A stretch of 64,000 nt of DNA from a virus, in the IMG/VR virus record IMGVR_UViG_3300014039_000003, positions 1 to 64,000 of that record. One strand, 5' to 3'. Below, one piece after another: positions 3,628 through 33,772 of the stretch (the first letter of the stretch is position 1; every line of letters begins with the position of its first letter). Under the pieces are notes generated by a model that was not told where the DNA came from, searched no databases, and saw nothing but the letters and a program-made list of their open reading frames with translations. The position numbers and the translations under genes are program-made.

Positions 3628-4023
3628 ATGAAAGGAGAATTTTGTAAAATGGGATTTTTGGGTTCATTTCTTGGTCTGCTTGGTGCTTCGGCAGTGTTTG
3701 TCGGAGCTGATGTTAAAGAGCGTTGGGACGAGATAGACCGTGAGCGGCAGCGTATTGCGGCAAACCCTGCACCGCCTCCGGAGATGAGAGGAAATTTAAG
3801 AAGAAAATATGAGTCCGAGTGGCACAGAGGTGACAATACCCACTTCCCGGATGAGTATCTTCCTGCTCTTGAGAGCGACCCCGAAGTGCTTTACTGGTGG
3901 ATTGAGCTTCTCGCTGAGCGCGAAATAAAGCGTCAGGGTTATCGCGGCTTCCATGTCAATATTCAGGGCAATTTTAATCGAGTATATAATGCTTGGAAGG
4001 AGCGTCAGAATTGGGTCAGATAA
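3628..4023 (+). CDS. Hypothetical protein with N-terminal hydrophobic segment
   Basis: ORF; first gene after the consensus promoter. Confidence 0.5.
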   Translation: MKGEFCKMGFLGSFLGLLGASAVFVGADVKERWDEIDRERQRIAANPAPPPEMRGNLRRKYESEWHRGDNTHFPDEYLPALESDPEVLYWWIELLAEREIKRQGYRGFHVNIQGNFNRVYNAWKERQNWVR

Positions 4024-4961
4024 CCAGTGTTGATGTTAATAAAGATGTACTTATTGACGGTCTGAAAGCTCAGAACGCAAGACTAAAAAAGCTCCTCCGC
4101 GAAACAGCAGAAGAGCGAGACAGATACAAATCCCTATGGGAAACAAATCGGATTCCAAATGAAATCTCGGAAGAGGAGCGAAAAGCAAATCGGCGATTAG
4201 AACAAGAGAAAAAGCAGGAGCGGTTGCTGTCCGGTGTAAAGTCGGACGGCGTTCCAATAGCTCATGCAGCGGATTCAATTCGTTCCTATGATGAAATGTG
4301 CGTCGTGTTGGATAAGCTCAAGAACACAGGGCGAATGGGAATACGAAATTGGGCTATGTTCCGCTGCGGTATTTGCTTCGGTCTCAGGGCGAGCGACCTC
4401 GTTAAATTAAAATGGGGTTGGATCATGGACGACGACGGCGAGTTCAGAGACCGTATACCCGTGGTCGAGAGCAAGACGTCTAAAATCAATCGGTGCTTCA
4501 TTTCAGACGCGATAAAGGAAACGCTTACAGAATATCGCAAGTGGCTCGGCGGACGAAACTGTTCTCCCGACGATTACATCTTCTCGAAGAATAACGGCGG
4601 AAGATTGCAGGAGCAAAGCTATTCACGATATCTCAAAAATGCAGGAAAGGAAGCGGGGCTTCCAATACACATCTCGTCTCATACCATGAGAAAATCGTTT
4701 GCAAATATAGTATTATGCTGTCACGACGGCGGCGCGAATGATTACGCTATGAGAGACTTGCAGGGTATGCTCGGGCATTCAGATGTAAGAATCACGATGA
4801 GTTACCTCAAGGACACAATCCTCAGATACGACGAGGCAAGAAAGGCGGTGTCGGATTTCGTTCTCGGTAAGACAGATATAAACGAGTTAGTTACTTCAAA
4901 ACAGGTTTCCAATAATGAAATTTACGAGCTTTGCAAAGAAATGTTTGGAAAAGTTGCGTAA
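3993..4961 (+). CDS. int: Tyrosine-type site-specific recombinase / phage integrase
   Basis: R...HTMRKSFA...LGHSDVRITMSYL (R-H-R-Y catalytic region); start may be downstream of 3993. Confidence 0.85.
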   Translation: MEGASELGQITSVDVNKDVLIDGLKAQNARLKKLLRETAEERDRYKSLWETNRIPNEISEEERKANRRLEQEKKQERLLSGVKSDGVPIAHAADSIRSYDEMCVVLDKLKNTGRMGIRNWAMFRCGICFGLRASDLVKLKWGWIMDDDGEFRDRIPVVESKTSKINRCFISDAIKETLTEYRKWLGGRNCSPDDYIFSKNNGGRLQEQSYSRYLKNAGKEAGLPIHISSHTMRKSFANIVLCCHDGGANDYAMRDLQGMLGHSDVRITMSYLKDTILRYDEARKAVSDFVLGKTDINELVTSKQVSNNEIYELCKEMFGKVA

Positions 4962-5704: not shown

Positions 5705-6314
5705 GTCAAATTCGAAAATAATAAAAGGACTTTCGCTTGCTCTGGCGCTGAGCATAGGAGCATTCCTCATGGTTGGTAACGCCCTGCCGGTAGAAGCTCC
5801 GAGCGCAGAGGTAACTGAAATCGAAACCGAAAACGAATCGGTTTTGGATTTGAAAACGGAAATGGAATCCGAAACAGAAACCGCCTCCGTCACAGAACAG
5901 CGAAAGCCTACCGATTCAAAAACGAAATACGACGAGATAATCGCCGAGATCGCCGAAAAGTACGGCGTCTCGGCGGCTCTTATCAAAGCGGTTATCAAAA
6001 CGGAAAGCAATTTCAACCCGACCTTGGTTAGTGCGACCAACGACTATGGTTTGATGCAAATCAACGCCTGTAATGTATCGTGGCTTGCAGACGAGCTGGG
6101 CGTCACAGATTTGTTTGATCCAGCGCAGAACATCGAAAGCGGTGTGTATATCCTCAGCGGATATTTGAAGCGCTATTCGCTTGCAGATGCGCTGATGGCT
6201 TACAACTGTGGCGAGGGTGGAGCGAAACGCCTATGGAAACAGGGTGTTCACTCTACTCACTATACGAAAAAGGTATTGAAAAACTTGGATGAATTTGGAG
6301 GATTTTATGAATAG
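5691..6314 (+). CDS. Secreted lytic transglycosylase (SLT/GH23 domain) with signal peptide
   Basis: ES..F.P and GLMQIN catalytic motifs; N-terminal signal-like segment. Confidence 0.75.
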   Translation: MFMYKSNSKIIKGLSLALALSIGAFLMVGNALPVEAPSAEVTEIETENESVLDLKTEMESETETASVTEQRKPTDSKTKYDEIIAEIAEKYGVSAALIKAVIKTESNFNPTLVSATNDYGLMQINACNVSWLADELGVTDLFDPAQNIESGVYILSGYLKRYSLADALMAYNCGEGGAKRLWKQGVHSTHYTKKVLKNLDEFGGFYE

Positions 6315-6543
6315 ACATAGATGTTTCGCGGACAGAGGAAGCTGCTGCGCTGTGCTTACAGAAAAGCTGTGCGAATACGGCGGTTGTCGGTTCTATAAAA
6401 CCGAACAGCAGCTCTACAACGAAAGACAGTTTGTAGACAGATACATACAGAATAAATACGGGGTTAGCCGTAGGGAATATGTGAGAAACAAATACGGCAG
6501 TGAGCTTTTGAACTACAGGAGGAGACGAAATGAGGAAGTCTAA
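6307..6543 (+). CDS. Hypothetical Cys-rich basic protein
   Basis: ORF. Confidence 0.35.
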   Translation: MNRHRCFADRGSCCAVLTEKLCEYGGCRFYKTEQQLYNERQFVDRYIQNKYGVSRREYVRNKYGSELLNYRRRRNEEV

Positions 6544-6748
6544 ACTTTTCACTCTGATAGCTCACGAGGTTGTGCCTCGGAAATGCGTAAACAACATGGA
6601 GTTTGTTGGCTATGTTGCCCGGTGCAGTCAGTGTGGCGAACCAATAGCAATCCACTATAAGCTCGACGACGAGTTGAGAGTTACGGTTCTACCGAGATTC
6701 AAAAGATTCACAGAGGAAATAGAAAAGAAAATTAAAGGAGGAATTTAA
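6530..6748 (+). CDS. Small zinc-ribbon-like protein
   Basis: C..C...C..C spacing. Confidence 0.4.
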   Translation: MRKSKLFTLIAHEVVPRKCVNNMEFVGYVARCSQCGEPIAIHYKLDDELRVTVLPRFKRFTEEIEKKIKGGI

Positions 6749-7527
6749 TGGAAGAGAATAAAATGACACTATTCACAAACGAAGAGCTTGGAAATGTCAG
6801 GGCATTGGAGATCGACGGTGAGCCGTATTTCGTTGGCAAGGATGTAGCCAACATCCTCGGGTACCAAAACGGTAGTCGAGATATTAACCGTCATGTAGAT
6901 GAAGAGGATAGGCACAAGGTTATGCTCTTTGATGGTAATCAGGATAAGGAAACCATCATTATCAACGAGTCTGGTCTTTACAGTCTTATACTTTCAAGCA
7001 AACTCCCAAAAGCAAAAGAGTTCAAGCATTGGATAACCGCTGAAGTCCTACCCGTTATCCGTAAGACGGGCGGCTATGTAAACGACACGAAGCAGTTCGT
7101 CGATTATTACTTCGCAGACTGCAATACATATGGGCGAGAAGCTATTACGCTTATGCTCAACGAAACAAAACGAATGGCAAATCAGCTGAAGGCTCAGGCT
7201 CCAAAGGTGCTGTTCGCTGAGGCTGTAGAAGGCTCGAAGACATCTATTCCAGTTGGCGACCTTGCAAAGCTCATAAAACAGAATGGCGTTGACATCGGGC
7301 AGAATCGTCTGTTCTCGTGGTTGAGAATGAATGATTATCTGATAAAGTCGGGCGATAGAAAGAATATGCCGACACAGAAGTCTATGGATTTAGGGCTGTT
7401 CGAGGTTAAGATATCGACTTTCTACAGACCTGACGGCACGGTGGATATTGCGAAGACACCGAAGGTTACAGGTAAAGGTCAGACTTATCTTATTAACAAA
7501 TTCTTGTCGAGTTTAAAAGGAGCGTGA
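6748..7527 (+). CDS. Bro-N / KilA-C (ANT) domain antirepressor
   Basis: N-terminal Bro-N-like (FxxxEL..VR....DGEPWFVGKDVA..LGY) plus C-terminal antirepressor region; AGGAGG RBS. Confidence 0.8.
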   Translation: MEENKMTLFTNEELGNVRALEIDGEPYFVGKDVANILGYQNGSRDINRHVDEEDRHKVMLFDGNQDKETIIINESGLYSLILSSKLPKAKEFKHWITAEVLPVIRKTGGYVNDTKQFVDYYFADCNTYGREAITLMLNETKRMANQLKAQAPKVLFAEAVEGSKTSIPVGDLAKLIKQNGVDIGQNRLFSWLRMNDYLIKSGDRKNMPTQKSMDLGLFEVKISTFYRPDGTVDIAKTPKVTGKGQTYLINKFLSSLKGA

Positions 7528-8805
7528 GTCAGTATAAAGAAAATCCTTATTGGCGGTAGTCCTTGTACAAAGTGGAGTATCGCTCAGAAAAACGGAAGAG
7601 AAGTTTTACCCGAAGGTGTCGGTTGGGAATTATTCGAGAACTATCGAATGGCAAAAGAAAAATTCCAACCTGACATCTTCTTATATGAGAACAACAAGTC
7701 GGCGGCTCAACCCATAAAAGATGCAATTTACTCTGCTCTTGGGGGGGGCAAGGATTCACTGGTTCGGCTCACTCATATAGACAGTGCATTGGTTTCAGCA
7801 CAACATCGTCAAAGGTTCTATGTTACGAATTTTGGTGATATAGAACAGCCGGAAGACAGAGGAATTTTACTTCGCGATGTGCTTGAAAGCGGAAGAGACT
7901 TGTCTTGCCGTGAAAAGGCATATACGCTCACAGCCAGTTATGGCGGAGCGGTAGCGTGGAACACACTGGAAAGAAATCAGCGAACGATGGTTATAGAGCC
8001 AGTATGCGTGGAATCTGTAGTTGGTGAGTCAATTCAAAAAATGATTCCTGCCGTTGTTGATAGACTGGGCTTTTTACCAGAGAAATTCAATGCTTATAAC
8101 TGTGCCGAAATAAAGGACAAATCGCCGTCGCTCACAACGGGAAGTATGGTTACGAGCAGTTGCGCTACTACAATTTTGGAGCCGGTACGCATCGGAACCA
8201 TAGAGAGCAATGTAAAGAATAAGTCGCACGATAGCAAACAATATCGTGTGTATAGTCCTAATGGAAAAGCAACTACGCTTTGTGGACAAGGTGGCGGCGT
8301 GGGCGCGAAGACGGGCTTATATGCAGTACCAATTAACGGTGTGCATAAGGAGTTTCCCGTCTATGAGGTTAAGGATGGGTTTATAACAATTAAGGACAAG
8401 CAATATCCGATTAAGCTCGCCGATGGATATTACCTTATACGAAAGCTTACACCGTTAGAGTGTGAGAGACTGCAAACTCTTCCGGATGGTTATACGAGCG
8501 GAGTTAGTGATACTCAACGATATCGTGCTATTGGCAATGGGTGGACGGCAGAGGTTATTATACATATTTTAAATCATGCTCTTAAAGATGTCCCGAGAGA
8601 CGAAGAGATTGTGGTTCTGTCCATGTATGACGGCATAGCGACCGGGCGGTATTGCTTGGATAAGATGGGTTTTACGAATGTCAGGTATTATGCCTACGAA
8701 ATAGACCCATATCCGATAAAGATAGCGATGTCAAACTATCCCGATATCATCCAGTGCGGTGATGCCTTTCAGATTAGGGGCGATAACTGGAAAATTCCAG
8801 CCTAA
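7528..8805 (+). CDS. Circularly permuted DNA (cytosine-5)-methyltransferase. Motif order IV(PC)-VI(ENN)-VIII(QxRxR)-TRD-X-I-II-III. No canonical start codon before the PC motif; first ATG is 7648
   Basis: GGSPCTKWSIA (IV), FLYENNKS (VI), QHRQRFYVTNF (VIII), YRAIGNGWTAEV (X), then LSMYDGIATG (I), AYEIDPYPIKIAMSNYPD (II), GDAF (III) at C-terminus. Confidence 0.65.
   Translation, partial: VSIKKILIGGSPCTKWSIAQKNGREVLPEGVGWELFENYRMAKEKFQPDIFLYENNKSAAQPIKDAIYSALGGGKDSLVRLTHIDSALVSAQHRQRFYVTNFGDIEQPEDRGILLRDVLESGRDLSCREKAYTLTASYGGAVAWNTLERNQRTMVIEPVCVESVVGESIQKMIPAVVDRLGFLPEKFNAYNCAEIKDKSPSLTTGSMVTSSCATTILEPVRIGTIESNVKNKSHDSKQYRVYSPNGKATTLCGQGGGVGAKTGLYAVPINGVHKEFPVYEVKDGFITIKDKQYPIKLADGYYLIRKLTPLECERLQTLPDGYTSGVSDTQRYRAIGNGWTAEVIIHILNHALKDVPRDEEIVVLSMYDGIATGRYCLDKMGFTNVRYYAYEIDPYPIKIAMSNYPDIIQCGDAFQIRGDNWKIPA
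7741..7748 (+). repeat. G8 homopolymeric tract inside C5-MTase ORF (encodes GGG)
   Basis: gggggggg; potential slipped-strand site. Confidence 0.9.
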
Positions 8806-8840
8806 AAGGAATTGGGTTTCGATTTGAAAATTGAAAATGA

Positions 8841-8849
8841 GGGGGGGGG
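8841..8849 (+). repeat. G9 homopolymeric tract forming the SD/spacer of the downstream amino-MTase
   Basis: ggggggggg 7 nt upstream of ATG 8857. Confidence 0.9.
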
Positions 8850-8856
8850 AAATGAA

Positions 8857-9460
8857 ATGGCTCAGGATTGGAGTGGTGATGCAAATTCCGTATATAAAAT
8901 CATTGGGGCGTCGAACCACTCAAATGAAAGTAGGGCAGATGATGATTATTACGCGACTGACCCGAAGGCGGTGGAGGAGCTGCTGAAACGAGAGAAATTT
9001 GCTCACTATGTGTGGGAACCTTGTTGTGGCGGCGGACACATATCAAAAGTGTTGGAAGCTCATGGCTACGACGTTCTGTCGAGTGACATTGTGGATAGAG
9101 GTTATCCTAATACATATGTGGCTGACTTCTTAAGTGTTGCCCCCCCCTGCTGAGTGTATATCACGCGATATTATCACGAACCCGCCGTACAAATACGCCA
9201 AGGAATTTATAGAGAAAGCCTTAGAAATATCTATGGATTCGGTCAAGATAGCAATGTTTCTTAAGGTTACATTTCTTGAAGGTAAGGCAAGACGGGAGTT
9301 GTTTGATAAAGCTCCACCGAAATATGTGTATGTGTTTTCAGGCAGAGTAAACTGTGCCAAGAACGGTGACTTCAGCAAAACTGAGTCGAGTGCTGTGGCG
9401 TATGCATGGTTCGTTTGGGAAAAGGGTTTCAAAGGCGAGCCGAAAATTAGATGGATTTAA
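8857..9460 (+). CDS. Small DNA amino-methyltransferase (motif I EPCCGGG then motif IV NPPY). Split into two ORFs (8857-9153, 9134-9460) by +1 frameshift at a C8 tract, likely phase-variable
   Basis: FxGxG-like VWEPCCGGGHIS, acidic D after beta2, IITNPPYKY. Deleting one C at 9140-9147 fuses the frames. Confidence 0.65.
9140..9147 (+). repeat. C8 homopolymeric tract at frameshift point of amino-MTase
   Basis: cccccccc. Confidence 0.9.
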
Positions 9461-10386: not shown

Positions 10387-12621
10387 ATGAGGGTATTACT
10401 GTTGTTGCGCGGTAGTGCTGGGTGCGGTAAGTCAACATGGATTGAAAAGAATGGACTTAAACCCTATACACTATCCGCCGACGAGATAAGGTTGATGTAC
10501 GCTTCGCCCACTTTAAATGTTTGTGGTGAAGAGTGTATAAGTCAGTCGAATGACACTAAGGTCTGGAAGACGCTTTTTCAGATTCTTGAGTCTCGAATGG
10601 AGCGAGGCGAATTTACCGTTATCGACGCGACGAACTCCAAAACTTCCGAGATGAAGCGCTATGCGGAGCTTTGTAATCGCTATCGCTATAGGATTTACTG
10701 CGTGGACCTTACTGACATTCCCATAGAGGAAACAAAAAGACGAAACAAAATGAGATCTGTAGTTAAGCAGGTTCCTGAAACGGTAATCGACAATATGTAT
10801 GCTCGTTTCGCTACTCAGAAAATTCCGTCGGGGATAACCGTTATAAAACCGGACGAGCTTTCAAAGGTGTGGTTCAAACCTATGGATGTTTCGGAATACG
10901 ATGCGCTTCATTTTATTGGAGATGTTCATGGTTGTTATACGGCACTCAAAGAAGCAATTGGAGATATAACCGAGAAGCCTAATGAGCTGTTTGTGTTCTG
11001 TGGAGACTATACTGACAGAGGAATTGAAAATGCAGAGGTAGTAGAGGAGCTCCTGCGTATCTATAAAGAGCCGAATGTATATCTCTTAGAAGGAAATCAC
11101 GAGAGACATATGTGGGTTTGGGCTAATGACGGAACTACTGGATCGAAAGAGTTCGAGATGCATACAAGAGCTCAGCTTGAAAGTGCTTCTTTTACTAAAA
11201 AGGATGTTCGCAAACTTTACAGAAGTTTCGGGCAGTGCGCCTATTATACATATCGTGGCAAGACTATATTGGCTACACACGGTGGTCTTAGTACGCTGCC
11301 TGATAATCTCACACTGGTATCTACCGACCAAATGATTAAGGGCTCCGGGAATTATAGCGACGCCGACGTTGTTGACCAGTCTTTTTGTGAAAATACTGAT
11401 GCTTATCAGGTACATGGACACAGAAACCTTAAAGGAAACCCCGTCCAGACTTACAGAGCTTTTAATCTTGAGGGGAATGTTGAGTTTGGAGGCTCGATAA
11501 GAACTGTCAGTTTTGTCGGTGATGAGATAAAGGTGAATGAGTTTAAAAACAATATATATTCACCGACTGAAGAGAGGGTTGATTACACTGCAAAGGTTAA
11601 AAAGAGTGAATCCGTTGCAGATGCTATTCTGGCTCTGAGAAGCAATAAACAGGTAGTTGAGAAGCAGTTCGGTGATATCTCGTCTTTTAACTTCTCAAAA
11701 CAGGCTTTCTTTGACAAGATATGGGACGAGCAGACGATTAGAGCACGAGGCTTGTATATCAACATTCCTAAAGGAAAAATAGTCGCGAGGGGTTATACAA
11801 AGTTCTTTAATATAAATGAGCGACCGGAGACAAAGTTTGATATGTTGCAGTGCAAGCTTAAGTTCCCCGTAACCGCATATGTCAAAGAAAATGGATTCCT
11901 TGGTTTAGTTTCGTATAACGAGATAAATGATTCTCTGTTTGTTACAACGAAATCCAACCCGGATGGTGATTATGCGTCGTGGCTTAAAGAGATGATAGAT
12001 AAGAAAATCTCTGTTGACACACAGCAGAAAATGAAAGAATTTTCAAAAGAGAACAATGTAACATTCGTGTTTGAGTGTGTTGATATGCAGAGAGATCCGC
12101 ACATAATTGATTACCCCGAAAATCATCTTTTCTTGCTTGATATTGTTTACAACGAATTGAAGTTCAAAAAGTTCGATTATGACGAGCTTATAAGTGTTGC
12201 TAACAAGTTCGGGCTTGAGCGCAAAGAGCAGGCTGTCGTAATTAATGATTGGCAGACATTCTTCGATTGGTATTACACAGTTACAGCACCTAATTATCTT
12301 TATGATAATAGGCATATAGAGGGTTTTGTTGTTGAAGACGCCGACGGTTACATGGTTAAGCTTAAACTCACTTATTATAATCTTTGGAAGTATCTTCGCG
12401 GCGTTTCCTATAAAGTTCTTAGACGTGGACATCTTGATGGTAAGGACACTTCGTCGCTCACAACGCCATTAATGAACCAATATTATGCATGGCTCAGACG
12501 AATTTATGCAGAGACGGAGGATAGAGAGTCAATACCGCGTGATATCTGCTCGCTTAGAAAACTATTCTACGCATCGGACGAAGGAAGAGATTTTGCAAAG
12601 GAGGGAAACGATAATGATTGA
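10387..12621 (+). CDS. Pnkp-like RNA repair enzyme: P-loop polynucleotide kinase + calcineurin-type phosphoesterase + RNA-ligase-like nucleotidyltransferase
   Basis: GSAGCGKST Walker A; GDVHG/GDYTDRG/GNHE/HGG/GH phosphoesterase motifs; ligase motifs KENGF (I), EGFVV (IV), MVKLK (V). Confidence 0.75.
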   Translation: MRVLLLLRGSAGCGKSTWIEKNGLKPYTLSADEIRLMYASPTLNVCGEECISQSNDTKVWKTLFQILESRMERGEFTVIDATNSKTSEMKRYAELCNRYRYRIYCVDLTDIPIEETKRRNKMRSVVKQVPETVIDNMYARFATQKIPSGITVIKPDELSKVWFKPMDVSEYDALHFIGDVHGCYTALKEAIGDITEKPNELFVFCGDYTDRGIENAEVVEELLRIYKEPNVYLLEGNHERHMWVWANDGTTGSKEFEMHTRAQLESASFTKKDVRKLYRSFGQCAYYTYRGKTILATHGGLSTLPDNLTLVSTDQMIKGSGNYSDADVVDQSFCENTDAYQVHGHRNLKGNPVQTYRAFNLEGNVEFGGSIRTVSFVGDEIKVNEFKNNIYSPTEERVDYTAKVKKSESVADAILALRSNKQVVEKQFGDISSFNFSKQAFFDKIWDEQTIRARGLYINIPKGKIVARGYTKFFNINERPETKFDMLQCKLKFPVTAYVKENGFLGLVSYNEINDSLFVTTKSNPDGDYASWLKEMIDKKISVDTQQKMKEFSKENNVTFVFECVDMQRDPHIIDYPENHLFLLDIVYNELKFKKFDYDELISVANKFGLERKEQAVVINDWQTFFDWYYTVTAPNYLYDNRHIEGFVVEDADGYMVKLKLTYYNLWKYLRGVSYKVLRRGHLDGKDTSSLTTPLMNQYYAWLRRIYAETEDRESIPRDICSLRKLFYASDEGRDFAKEGNDND

Positions 12622-31343: not shown

Positions 31344-31958
31344 TTATTCGCCGCTTTGGCAGCGACACATAACAATCTTATAGTCACCGGCTCCCAAAAT
31401 ACGAGTAGCCGTTGCATAAACCATTAGTTTGCCATTCTCGTAATACATAGTACCATTATAACTGGCTGAGCTTAGTTTGTTTGTTTTTCCCGCCACATAT
31501 ATGTTTGTGCCTCCACCCGAGCGCACGGAGAGCCCATACATAAATCCGCCAATTGCGATGTTTCCGCTCATATTGAGTAGAATATAATTGTTGGTTTGTT
31601 GTGTTGTTGTTGGGAATAACATAACAACAAAGTCATCATCGGCGTGGTGTTCTGTTAAGAACTCGTCGTTCTGAAGCACCGTCGTTACTGTGGTTGCATC
31701 GGATGACAAGGTAAAGTCCACAGTTTTTATTTGAGTCGCTCCTTGCGCCACAGCGACAACAACTGACGCAAAATCGGTTACGTCATATGTTCCGTTAGCT
31801 GTTATCTGCTTTGTGCCGCTCGGACCCGCCCCGCCATCCTGAGTGTTCTTTACGACAATATCTCCCTCGCAATACTTACCGGCAGTTTTAAGTGTCTTTG
31901 TTGAATCTGTTGAGATATTTGCAATAACACTATTCTTATATGTGATTTCGACAGACAT
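31344..31958 (-). CDS. Tail fibre-associated protein
   Basis: Position downstream of tailspike; Gly/Thr-rich. Confidence 0.45.
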   Translation of the reverse strand: MSVEITYKNSVIANISTDSTKTLKTAGKYCEGDIVVKNTQDGGAGPSGTKQITANGTYDVTDFASVVVAVAQGATQIKTVDFTLSSDATTVTTVLQNDEFLTEHHADDDFVVMLFPTTTQQTNNYILLNMSGNIAIGGFMYGLSVRSGGGTNIYVAGKTNKLSSASYNGTMYYENGKLMVYATATRILGAGDYKIVMCRCQSGE

Positions 31959-33772
31959 TAGCTCGTACCTCCGTCATATTTGGGTAATGTGGCGAGTGTG
32001 AGATATCCTTGATTTTTTACCCATGTTTGTGTTACCTCCTGCGACGGAACATTAACTATTTGTTTATAATCTACCTTAATACCACTTGCTAATGTGCCTA
32101 CTTGCTCATATGTTAGATCCTCGTTAACTGTTATAATGGGAGCACCATCGCTGGTAACGGAGTAAACATTAAGCTTGAAATATGCCGCCGCATCGTTCGC
32201 AATCGTAAACTGACATCCGTTCTCGCCCGCTACATAATCCTTAACAAAGTAATATGATTTATTGTCAATAAGATTTCCGCGATTAACAAGCGTTAATTTC
32301 GAGTAATCGTTCTTATACAGAATTACCCGGCAATTATCATCGCCGGGATCAAAAGAAATACCCTTTAATCTAATAATCGCTCCTACGCTACAAGGAATAA
32401 ATCCTGTACAAAGAAGACCGCTTGCGGTGGAAAGCGTTGTACCATCCGTTCCCCACATTTTCCCAATTTGATAACCAGCTTCACCAAATACACTTCCATC
32501 AGTTGCAGTTGCAGTGGGCAACCTGTTTGTGAACTGCGGGACAAGTGTTGTTTGAAAAGTAGCATCATACGCTTCTTTCAAAAGTAGCTCCTTGTTTTCT
32601 GAACCTGTGAAGAACATAGGCGTATCGCCGATAGGCTTAAACCAACGAGTAAATGGCTCTTGCAAAATGGTTATTTTTTCAAGATTGCTATCTGTATCGG
32701 TGTAAATCAACCTCCGAATGTCATAAGAAGGCATTTCATAATAAAAGAAATCATTAAGAATTGTCCCACTACAATTTCCAGTCATTGCTATATGCTGATA
32801 TATACATCCCGTAGAGGTGTCGCCACTCCAAAGTGTATTATTCGAGTTCCAATCCCACACTCTACTACCGCTGAGATCTGTGTTTCGAGACCGAATAAGT
32901 TGAATTCCATATTTAGCGTAAGAGACATTTGTGCCAGCTGTTGTAAGTGCTGGACGCGGCTGTATGGTGGCAGATATATACGCATTATTGCAATCCTCTA
33001 AGCATACGCCAATTTCGCAGGCGTCAATTACAGCCTCGATACGAGCCTCGTGGCACCAACCAGACCCAACCATCTTGGCGTGTATTCCAAAGGCAAAAGC
33101 CCCCGCAATTCGTATACCCGAGAAATTTAACCCCCAAATAAAGGTGGAAGTTGCCGAACTATCTGCTTCTATGTAAACAGCTGTACCGCTACAAGTTCCA
33201 TCTACAGAATAATGAAACCCCCTACTGTCTGTCTTGGTGATACAGACATCTGTAATATAGCGCCCGGTTTTCCACTGAGGATCCCACTTGTTATACGGCG
33301 GTACGTCGGTTACGCTATTATCAAGCGAGGAAGCAACATAGATGACACTTTTGCTAAATTCGTAAGGAACTCTTATCACTGCGTGGTTTCCTTTAAGATA
33401 AGCTGACATTTTCATAGCTATGCAATTTTCTGACGTCTGCGTAAAATCAAGCACAGTATCGGTATTCAATTCTAACCTACACGCGTCGCGAATTGTCAAC
33501 ACATCAGAAAGTTTGTATGTTCCCGCAGGAACATATACACACCTGTATTGAAGTAGTGCCGTTTGGAAAGCCGCCGTATCATCCGTTACCCCATCTCCTT
33601 TCGCGCCGAGGGTTCGGACATTGACCCCCCCCATAAGTTTTACCCCGCTTAATTGTGTAGCCATAATATCGACCTTGGCTTCCTCTGTAACAAGAACATC
33701 ATTCTCAGTTAAATAAGTTTTTAAGGTACTTTTTGCATTTTTTATGCGCTCAATTTCTGAGTTTATACTCAT
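31958..33772 (-). CDS. Tailspike/depolymerase with pectate-lyase-fold (right-handed beta-helix)
   Basis: VRTLGAKGDGVTDDTAAFQTAL signature of Pectate_lyase_3/GH28-like tailspikes. Confidence 0.75.
   Translation of the reverse strand: MSINSEIERIKNAKSTLKTYLTENDVLVTEEAKVDIMATQLSGVKLMGGVNVRTLGAKGDGVTDDTAAFQTALLQYRCVYVPAGTYKLSDVLTIRDACRLELNTDTVLDFTQTSENCIAMKMSAYLKGNHAVIRVPYEFSKSVIYVASSLDNSVTDVPPYNKWDPQWKTGRYITDVCITKTDSRGFHYSVDGTCSGTAVYIEADSSATSTFIWGLNFSGIRIAGAFAFGIHAKMVGSGWCHEARIEAVIDACEIGVCLEDCNNAYISATIQPRPALTTAGTNVSYAKYGIQLIRSRNTDLSGSRVWDWNSNNTLWSGDTSTGCIYQHIAMTGNCSGTILNDFFYYEMPSYDIRRLIYTDTDSNLEKITILQEPFTRWFKPIGDTPMFFTGSENKELLLKEAYDATFQTTLVPQFTNRLPTATATDGSVFGEAGYQIGKMWGTDGTTLSTASGLLCTGFIPCSVGAIIRLKGISFDPGDDNCRVILYKNDYSKLTLVNRGNLIDNKSYYFVKDYVAGENGCQFTIANDAAAYFKLNVYSVTSDGAPIITVNEDLTYEQVGTLASGIKVDYKQIVNVPSQEVTQTWVKNQGYLTLATLPKYDGGTS
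33615..33621 (-). repeat. G7 tract (coding strand) inside tailspike ORF
   Basis: ccccccc on plus strand. Confidence 0.8.

Follow-up and report, generated by a model that had tools for sequence, protein, structure and literature searches.

Length-polymorphic G/C tracts in two orphan DNA methyltransferase genes of a temperate phage of gut Clostridia point to independent slipped-strand switching

The stretch of DNA considered in this work (referred to below as the window) comprises 64,000 nucleotides, viz. positions 1 to 64,000 of the virus record IMGVR_UViG_3300014039_000003 in the IMG/VR database, and the region of interest within it (6748-9460) contains two DNA methyltransferase (MTase) genes that follow each other on the plus strand. 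The first of these (7534-8805) encodes a circularly permuted C5-cytosine DNA MTase and is in frame (ON) in the window, and the second encodes an amino-MTase, the frame of which is divided between two open reading frames (ORFs; 8857-9153 and 9134-9460) that overlap at a run of C residues. Three homopolymeric tracts, all on the plus strand, are located in or at these genes. A G8 tract (7741-7748) lies within the C5-MTase gene, where it forms codons Gly70-Gly72 (in the sequence ALGGGK) between motifs VI and VIII; a G9 tract (8841-8849) constitutes the ribosome-binding site of the amino-MTase gene and is separated by the 7-nt spacer AAATGAA from the ATG at 8857; and a C8 tract (9140-9147) is present inside the amino-MTase frame. 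A homopolymer scan together with direct reading of the sequence reproduced all of these coordinates as given in a preliminary description of this DNA, and also its statements that the C5-MTase frame is intact across G8 and that G9 is the Shine-Dalgarno sequence positioned 7 nt before the ATG.

When all homopolymers in the window were scanned, 146 G/C runs of length four and 15 of length five were found, none of length six or seven, and four of length eight or nine, the latter being the only runs of six or more. In simulations based on order-1 and order-3 Markov models, about 6 runs of length 6-7 and 0.2-0.3 runs of at least 8 are expected, and the probability that three of four randomly placed tracts would fall inside 1.4 kb is 0.006. 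Based on these comparisons, the tracts are real, in excess of chance and clustered. The fourth tract, a C8 on the plus strand (33625-33632) and thus a G8 on the coding strand, occupies codons 47-49, in frame, of a tailspike ORF on the minus strand (31958-33772); the preliminary description had correctly recognized it as the sole comparable tract elsewhere, but its length is eight rather than seven. The three tracts of the MTase region are placed as the repeats of contingency loci are, i.e. where a change in length alters frame or expression (G8 in the C5-MTase ORF, C8 in the amino-MTase ORF and G9 in a ribosome-binding site).

The consequence of the C8 tract for the amino-MTase can be read directly. 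The N-terminal fragment of 98 aa (8857-9153) contains motif I, EPCCGGG (9016-9036), ends at the TGA at 9151-9153 and matches residues 186-279 of phrog_799 (E = 1.6e-28), and the C-terminal part in the +1 frame (9149-9460) contains motif IV, NPPY (9179-9190), and matches residues 286-379 of the same family (E = 4e-35). Removal of one C yields a protein of 200 aa which matches phrog_799 ('DNA methyltransferase') from end to end (E = 5e-68), and the earlier view that this is one gene split by C8 and out of frame here is thus borne out. The exact 98-aa N-terminal product was found on 3 contigs, and thousands of proteins of 200-210 aa are similar to the repaired enzyme.

The lengths of two of these tracts differ among closely related contigs. 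A sister haplotype, referred to here as haplotype B, was retrieved by exact-protein look-ups and is represented by 14 contigs, most of them at 15-70x coverage, from 11 European Nucleotide Archive (ENA) assemblies of three accession series, plus Logan and Joint Genome Institute (JGI) versions. Over positions 7528-9460 the differences in haplotype B consist of 1 single-nucleotide polymorphism (SNP), one 1-nt deletion and the tracts, whose lengths are G5, G6, G7, G8, G9 or G11 in the C5-MTase gene and C7 or C8 in the amino-MTase gene. The C5 tract is G5 in ERZ26859193 (with C7) and ERZ26858494 (with C8); G6 in ERZ26858510, ERZ26858441 and ERZ27300233 (all with C8) and in ERZ26858449 (with C7); G7 in ERZ808292 (with C8) and ERZ808295 (in which the amino-MTase tract is outside the contig); and G8, G9 and G11, each with C8, in ERZ26858500, ERZ26858129 and ERZ26858454, respectively. 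The combinations (G5,C8), (G5,C7), (G6,C8) and (G6,C7) are all present and the two tracts therefore assort independently of each other. Further, the haplotype-B contigs show blocks of SNPs upstream (6155-7230), and due to this they represent several sub-lineages rather than one sequence that was assembled repeatedly. For both the C5 G tract and the amino-MTase C tract the polymorphism is far above background. The preliminary description had named invariant tract lengths as the observation that would count against phase variation; the tracts instead range from G5 to G11 and from C6 to C9 across near-identical contigs of many assemblies.

These lengths translate into reading frames by simple rules. 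In the C5-MTase gene G5, G8 and G11 are in frame, whereas G6, G7 and G9 are out of frame. For the amino-MTase the rule depends on the sequence that follows the tract: in the window haplotype (TGCTGAG) the frame is restored by C7 or C10 and C8 is OFF, whereas in haplotype B (GTTGAG) C8 is in frame and C7 is out. In a third haplotype, C (TGTTGAG), C7 would be in frame, whereas the lengths found, C6 (two unrelated studies) and C8 (two runs), are both out of frame. The cluster of proteins formed at 90% identity around the C5-MTase ORF contains, each on 1-5 contigs, the variants ALGGK, ALGGGK, ALGGGGK, MQFTLLLGGK and MQFTLLLGGGK, and also 3' fragments of 308 and 338 aa. The window haplotype itself shows G8, plus G5 in one low-coverage contig; scanning JGI metagenomes for the pattern of the G tract yielded no contig beyond the one already known, and G5 or G11 versions of the window C5-MTase ORF do not occur in the protein collection searched, which comprises about 15 billion entries.

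Runs of this kind were also observed at other places among the related loci and contigs that were compared with the window, which carry labels of the form L001. In 846 kb of such loci there are 22 G/C runs of at least 7, and in 19 of the 22 the G residues are on the strand that codes for the MTases. Runs of G7-G9 occur at other positions of permuted C5-MTase genes (L101:4012, L113:4211, L121:4607, L132:634, L137:4983 and L024:3211), and the run in L101 lies inside the GGSPC motif itself. In another clade with the same C5 family, an unrelated beta-class amino-MTase (DPPY then FAGSGST) is encoded about 1.5 kb downstream, and its reading frame contains G tracts of 9 (L049:5168), 10 (L053:5430) and 8 (L057:5886), with all three contigs being one base out of frame.

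ON/OFF switching by slipped-strand mispairing is well supported for the C5 G tract and the amino-MTase C tract, and we place at roughly 0.7 the probability that length changes at these intragenic G/C tracts switch the two orphan phage MTases independently. The phase variation proposed in the preliminary description is thus retained for these two tracts, but not for G9, which has a single length in the haplotype. According to this proposal, slipped-strand mispairing in replication would add or remove tract bases, the C5-MTase gene would shift between its in-frame and out-of-frame lengths and the amino-MTase gene would shift likewise, and, as the tracts are independent, up to four methylation states could be present in the population, the window being an example of the state with C5-MTase in frame and amino-MTase out of frame. 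Both genes are under strong purifying selection, the ratio of non-synonymous to synonymous rates (dN/dS) relative to their relatives being 0.05-0.24 for the C5-MTase and 0.01-0.06 for the amino-MTase. Beyond the frameshift, the amino-MTase sequence of the window is separated from that of haplotype B by 30 synonymous changes and 1 non-synonymous change (31 sites in 310 nt), and due to this the frameshift in the window should be interpreted as recent or reversible and not as old decay. The window and haplotype B (L004, L005, L007) are identical from about 8460 to the C tract and their divergence begins directly after the tract, a pattern that points to recombination with its junction at this tract.

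A number of observations weigh against switching. The polymorphism was established by comparing contigs between samples; several of the assemblies may share one cohort, and some of the Logan contigs may derive from the same runs as those in ENA. The C5-MTase gene lacks a canonical start codon (see below) and its expression level is uncertain. Other observations of this kind are the ones that would be expected from neutral decay, in which the phage could do without the MTases in many hosts, loss of function would first arise at homopolymers and the polymorphism would be non-adaptive. In approximately 9 of the 14 haplotype-B contigs the C5-MTase gene is not in frame, near to the two-thirds expected without selection on frame; exact in-frame forms of the window amino-MTase (C7 or C10) are absent from the same collection of about 15 billion proteins; and most relatives encode the identical Gly-Gly-Gly with a mere G5 run. 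In addition, L147 shows a 1-nt deletion, the C5-MTase is broken at several places in L153 and L154, which also carry insertions of an IS605 TnpB gene, and the amino-MTase cluster includes truncations at sites other than the tracts. These extra lesions and non-tract truncations indicate that outright decay has occurred in some lineages. As a general explanation neutral decay retains some weight but is unlikely, as it does not accord with the low dN/dS values (0.01-0.24) or with the excess of 30 synonymous changes versus 1 non-synonymous change downstream of the frameshift. Further, the in-frame lengths 5, 8 and 11 recur, the tracts are uninterrupted while runs of 6-7 have been purged genome-wide, and MTase genes from lineages and classes unrelated to these again contain such tracts.

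The preliminary description also assigned this locus to the phasevarion type, but this assignment cannot be retained, because the two enzymes are orphan, Type II-like MTases (one PF00145-type, the other M.TaqI-like) and no res or hsd partner genes are present among their neighbours (the antirepressor and a Band_7 protein). Phasevarions are based on phase-variable Type III mod or Type I hsd MTases of Haemophilus, Neisseria, Helicobacter, Streptococcus suis and others (PMC5909438, PMC7383803). They resemble the window genes in that a repeat tract in the frame of an MTase turns methylation ON or OFF, but their MTases are chromosomal, belong to Type III or Type I and are defined by a host regulon, whereas those in the window are phage-borne. 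In a strict phasevarion, MTase switching in the lysogen would alter host methylation, and thus a regulon, and this, rather than protection of the phage DNA, would be its main function. The phage is temperate, as its integrase (3993-4961) shows, prophage MTases, e.g. PamA, can reprogram their hosts (PMC13076061), and it is switching MTases that define phasevarions; all of this would accord with such a function. However, the genes are neither mod nor hsd, they have no partners, and their neighbours, an antirepressor and a polynucleotide kinase/RNA ligase, are early and counter-defence genes, and we regard a strict phasevarion as rather improbable. Bet-hedging of the phage's own DNA modification, which has recent precedents (see below), would be a likelier role than control of a host regulon, although effects on lysogen gene expression are possible.

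Programmed recoding, by which the C8 allele would yield full-length amino-MTase through +1 slippage on CCC-CCC-U or through transcriptional slippage, is very improbable. C-rich runs of proline codons are +1-prone sites and homopolymers permit slippage by RNA polymerase, and the finding that the frame of the unrelated beta-class MTase is off by one base in all three of its contigs would also accord with recoding. However, the out-of-frame arrangement is not conserved, as most relatives are in frame with 200-209-aa products found on 16 and 36 contigs, and both C6 and C8 are seen around an in-frame C7. A sequencing or assembly artefact at the homopolymers, to which the low coverage of L008 (1.9x), L009 (4.6x), L141 and L145 (both about 5x) might be thought to point, is hardly credible, since lengths from 5 to 11 recur in separate assemblies and pipelines (ENA, Logan and JGI), contigs with G5, G6, G7, G8, G9 and G11 have 15-70x coverage, and neither an A6 run (8036-8041) nor, apart from the single deletion noted above, the rest of the 1.9 kb shows indels.

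The two remaining tracts differ from those considered above in that length polymorphism was seen neither for G9 nor for the tailspike tract. At the ribosome-binding site, G9 is present in all contigs of the window haplotype and no switching of its length was seen among them. As the corresponding site in relatives has shorter runs, viz. AGGGGG (haplotype B) and AAGGGGA (L006), G9 is, from these alignments, an expansion. The tailspike gene (31958-33772, minus strand) encodes a pectate-lyase-type protein of 604 aa, and an in-frame ATG closely precedes its G8 (coding strand), which is thereby at a site typical of such switches. This tract is a candidate for a third switch, now in frame, which would affect receptor binding. 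No variants of it were found in neighbour look-ups, which gave the same contig group, or in its protein cluster, which has a single member.

The C5-MTase is of interest in its own right due to the order of its motifs. Beginning at the ATA at 7534, its 423 aa contain motif IV, GGSPC (the codon for the catalytic cysteine being at 7564-7566), motif VI, ENN (7687-7695), motif VIII, QHRQR (7801-7815), motif IX (8449-8496), motif X, GNG (8533-8541), and motif I, LSMYDGIATG (8617-8646), after which motifs II-III follow. Instead of the canonical order from I to X, the order is thus IV-VIII, target-recognition domain, IX-X and I-III. The circular permutation claimed in the preliminary description is confirmed by an alignment with the catalytic domain of DNMT3A in three permuted blocks, where residues 13-70 of DNMT3A correspond to query residues 355-411 (motifs I-III), 86-207 to 4-122 (motifs IV-VIII) and 244-285 to 307-346 (motifs IX-X). 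With GGSPC, ENN, QHRQR, GNG and LSMYDGIATG all present, the protein scores 69.7 bits against PF00145 (cut-off 22), and it scores 66 bits against TIGR00675, below the cut-off of 100.65. An AlphaFold model that had been considered for a fold search was too poor (mean pLDDT, the predicted local distance difference test, of 47.7) and was not used.

A protein search with the C5-MTase gave at least 8000 significant matches, the best 120 of which are 311-435 aa long and mostly cover 94-100% of the query. Loci of this family number 79 in IMG/VR and 42 in bacterial genomes, nearly all of the latter from Clostridia (Ruminococcus, Oscillospiraceae, Butyricicoccus, Criibacterium and others), and two distant loci with canonical motif order (L135 and L136) served as outgroup. 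On this comparison, the permuted C5-MTase is one of a large family carried by phages and prophages of Clostridia. In about 100 members the new N-terminus is located 5-7 residues before motif IV, i.e. the break is between motifs III and IV, and not in the variable region or between motifs V and VI, as in the known natural permutants. The permutation in the plant DRM2 protein has its break between motifs V and VI. DRM2 and the Type H enzymes M.BssHII, M.Alw26I, M2.Eco31I, M.Esp3I and M2.BsaI share with the window enzyme the same ten motifs and the same fold with relocated termini, and in plant DRM, as in the window C5-MTase, motif X leads into motif I (query 302-381 is contiguous with 4onq 174-253). 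However, in the M.BssHII group the break is in the variable region after motif VIII, whereas the window enzyme, broken at III/IV, starts at the catalytic GGSPC strand. In a 2018 survey of REBASE, natural permuted C5-MTases were found only with a break in the variable region (M.BssHII type), and permutants with the III/IV break had been obtained solely by engineering, as active variants of M.HaeIII, M.MpeI and M.SssI (PMC5944983). Our literature search for a natural III/IV-permuted C5-MTase family found no description of one. A topology that was previously only engineered is thus seen here in a large natural family, and this family lends itself to testing, on natural enzymes, whether new protein topologies arise by duplication and truncation.

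The start of the C5-MTase gene requires comment. Most of the members among about 120 family loci have an ATG 5-7 codons before GGSPC (e.g. MIKLLIGGSPC and MKKILIGGSPC). In the clade of the window no ATG, GTG or TTG is present between the TGA at 7525-7527 and the ATG at 7648, which is itself downstream of the catalytic cysteine. A Shine-Dalgarno sequence, AAGGAG (7517-7522, plus strand), is read 11 nt upstream of the ATA at 7534, and the position of this ATA is an ATG in L038 and L118. A Shine-Dalgarno sequence followed by ATA at 10-11 nt is seen in the window (7525-7536) and in L019, L020, L023, L024, L029, L034, L069, L072 and L096, and a second start-less sub-clade has the arrangement GAGAGGAG-N10-ATA with different upstream sequence. 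Due to the conservation of this arrangement in two sub-clades that differ upstream, the C5-MTase is probably initiated at ATA 7534, presumably weakly. Among start-less relatives the 38 codons before ATG 7648 show 6-13 synonymous versus 0-3 non-synonymous differences, from which it follows that these codons are translated. Four other possibilities were considered and rejected. The ATG at 7648, which is the choice of gene callers, would drop the catalytic cysteine, and the 38 codons upstream of it are under purifying selection. Read-through of the TGA, giving an antirepressor-MTase fusion, does not fit L019, L020, L024, L034 and L069, which have the same arrangement of Shine-Dalgarno, TGA and ATA with an upstream in-frame ORF of just 9-27 aa. 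Reassignment of TGA does not fit the window as a whole, where 8 of 28 long ORFs end in TGA and ORFs are intact under the standard code. Lastly, the GTG at 7524, which overlaps the TGA, begins an ORF of 11 codons that is not in the C5-MTase frame, and no plausible frameshift site was seen there.

With regard to the amino-MTase, no match was found in Pfam or NCBIfam, and its sequence gave nothing significant against the PDB. For a homologue with 91% identity, the AlphaFold model (pLDDT 73) had as its best PDB matches in Foldseek the catalytic domains of M.TaqI, M.BseCI and CamA, the top ones being chains of M.TaqI (E = 9e-8, probability 1.0, template modelling (TM) score 0.56), of whose length the amino-MTase covers about 0.3 (TMt 0.32). 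In the repaired protein EPCCGGG (residues 54-60) precedes NPPY (residues 108-111), which is the gamma-class order shared with M.TaqI, M.BseCI and CamA. Unlike these enzymes, the amino-MTase has just 200 aa, ends about 90 residues after NPPY and possesses no separate C-terminal target-recognition domain. Judging from the modelled fold, it is a minimal gamma-class MTase, probably of N6-adenine type, that lacks a recognition domain of its own. In one sister lineage of this enzyme, truncations recur close to 'REFF' and 'YVYVF', probably at T runs (P0133, P0243-P0245, P0247, P0248, P0252 and P0253); the products are of 150-172 aa, on up to 7 contigs each, and these sites may mark further frameshift hot spots.

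The surroundings of the two genes are those of a DNA-modification module with two orphan MTases in a phage of gut Clostridia. The preliminary description had the MTase region start at 6748, but the first 780 bases (6748-7527, plus strand) encode, according to Pfam, an antirepressor with Bro-N (PF02498, E = 2e-27) and KilAC (ANT; PF03374, E = 2e-33) domains. Its TGA stop codon at 7525-7527 is in the same frame as the C5-MTase, the two being divided by this single TGA, and its last codons include the Shine-Dalgarno sequence of the C5-MTase gene. Two genes downstream of the MTases, a 744-aa protein (10387-12621) contains AAA_33 kinase, metallophosphatase and T4 RNA-ligase-1 domains; it is a counter-defence gene of the tRNA-repair type, and the region resembles an anti-defence block. 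The presence of early and counter-defence genes as neighbours fits a role in protection of the phage DNA. A near-identity search of GenBank phages gave no match. In several relatives (L011:3787-3998; also L012, L016-L020, L024, L027, L032, L036 and L063) an insert of about 210 bp, resembling a miniature inverted-repeat transposable element, with 34-nt terminal inverted repeats (91% complementary), sits between the antirepressor stop codon and the ribosome-binding site of the C5-MTase gene. An Rfam search with this insert gave no match, and a 19-mer resembling its end (AAAAGGAATTGGGYTTYGA) is also found 3' of the C5-MTase stop codon, including in the window (8806-8826). An IS605-type TnpB gene (OrfB/Cas12f-like) is located between the amino-MTase and Band_7 genes in L012 (3241-4335), L153 (2942-4036) and L154 (2681-3775).

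Switching of phage genes by mononucleotide repeats has precedents. In phage T2, slippage at a poly-A repeat in the agt contingency locus turns DNA glucosylation off and on, so that a phage sensitive to TgvAB in one state is sensitive to McrA/BC in the other, and poly-A repeats in agt and rIIA of T2/T4 are phage contingency loci (Gomez, Barrick and Waters, bioRxiv 2025, PMC12633550). PolyG tracts are reported, as cited in PMC10877375, in receptor-binding genes of Campylobacter Fletchervirus phages (Sorensen et al., Cell Rep 2021;35:109214). In these cases, as is proposed for the window, a mononucleotide repeat in a phage gene is the site of reversible frameshifts, and agt resembles the window genes also in that it encodes a DNA-modification enzyme, for which the proposed benefit is likewise bet-hedging between opposite restriction systems. 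However, the window differs from T2 agt in that the enzymes are DNA MTases (of C5 and N6-adenine type), the tracts consist of G/C rather than A and two modification genes are independent, and it differs from both the T2 and the Campylobacter phages in being from a temperate gut phage of Clostridia known from metagenomes only, for which the evidence is population polymorphism and not measured switching. A recent review of phage MTases that reprogram hosts includes no phase-variable phage MTase among them (PMC13076061).

With regard to the benefit, we infer that a lineage switches rapidly and in both directions, that DNA is methylated by the products of in-frame alleles and that the advantage gained would be bet-hedging. 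Methylated genomes would escape classical restriction-modification but would face methylation-dependent (Type IV) restriction or a cost, whereas unmethylated genomes would have the opposite restriction profile. A wider proposal, which we hold tentatively and with less than even confidence, is that the two MTase switches and a possible tailspike switch yield progeny varied in methylation, and perhaps in receptor specificity, as an evolved form of bet-hedging against methylation-blocked or methylation-dependent restriction, and that one of these enzymes has an undescribed natural III/IV C5-MTase topology expressed from an ATA start. Phase variation of MTases is well studied in bacteria, whereas phage contingency loci have been described only recently. 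Comparison of this locus across natural samples provides evidence that a gut phage not yet in culture varies the methylation genes that it carries, two of them independently, and with it epigenetic bet-hedging of phages against restriction becomes testable in the human or animal gut from public reads.

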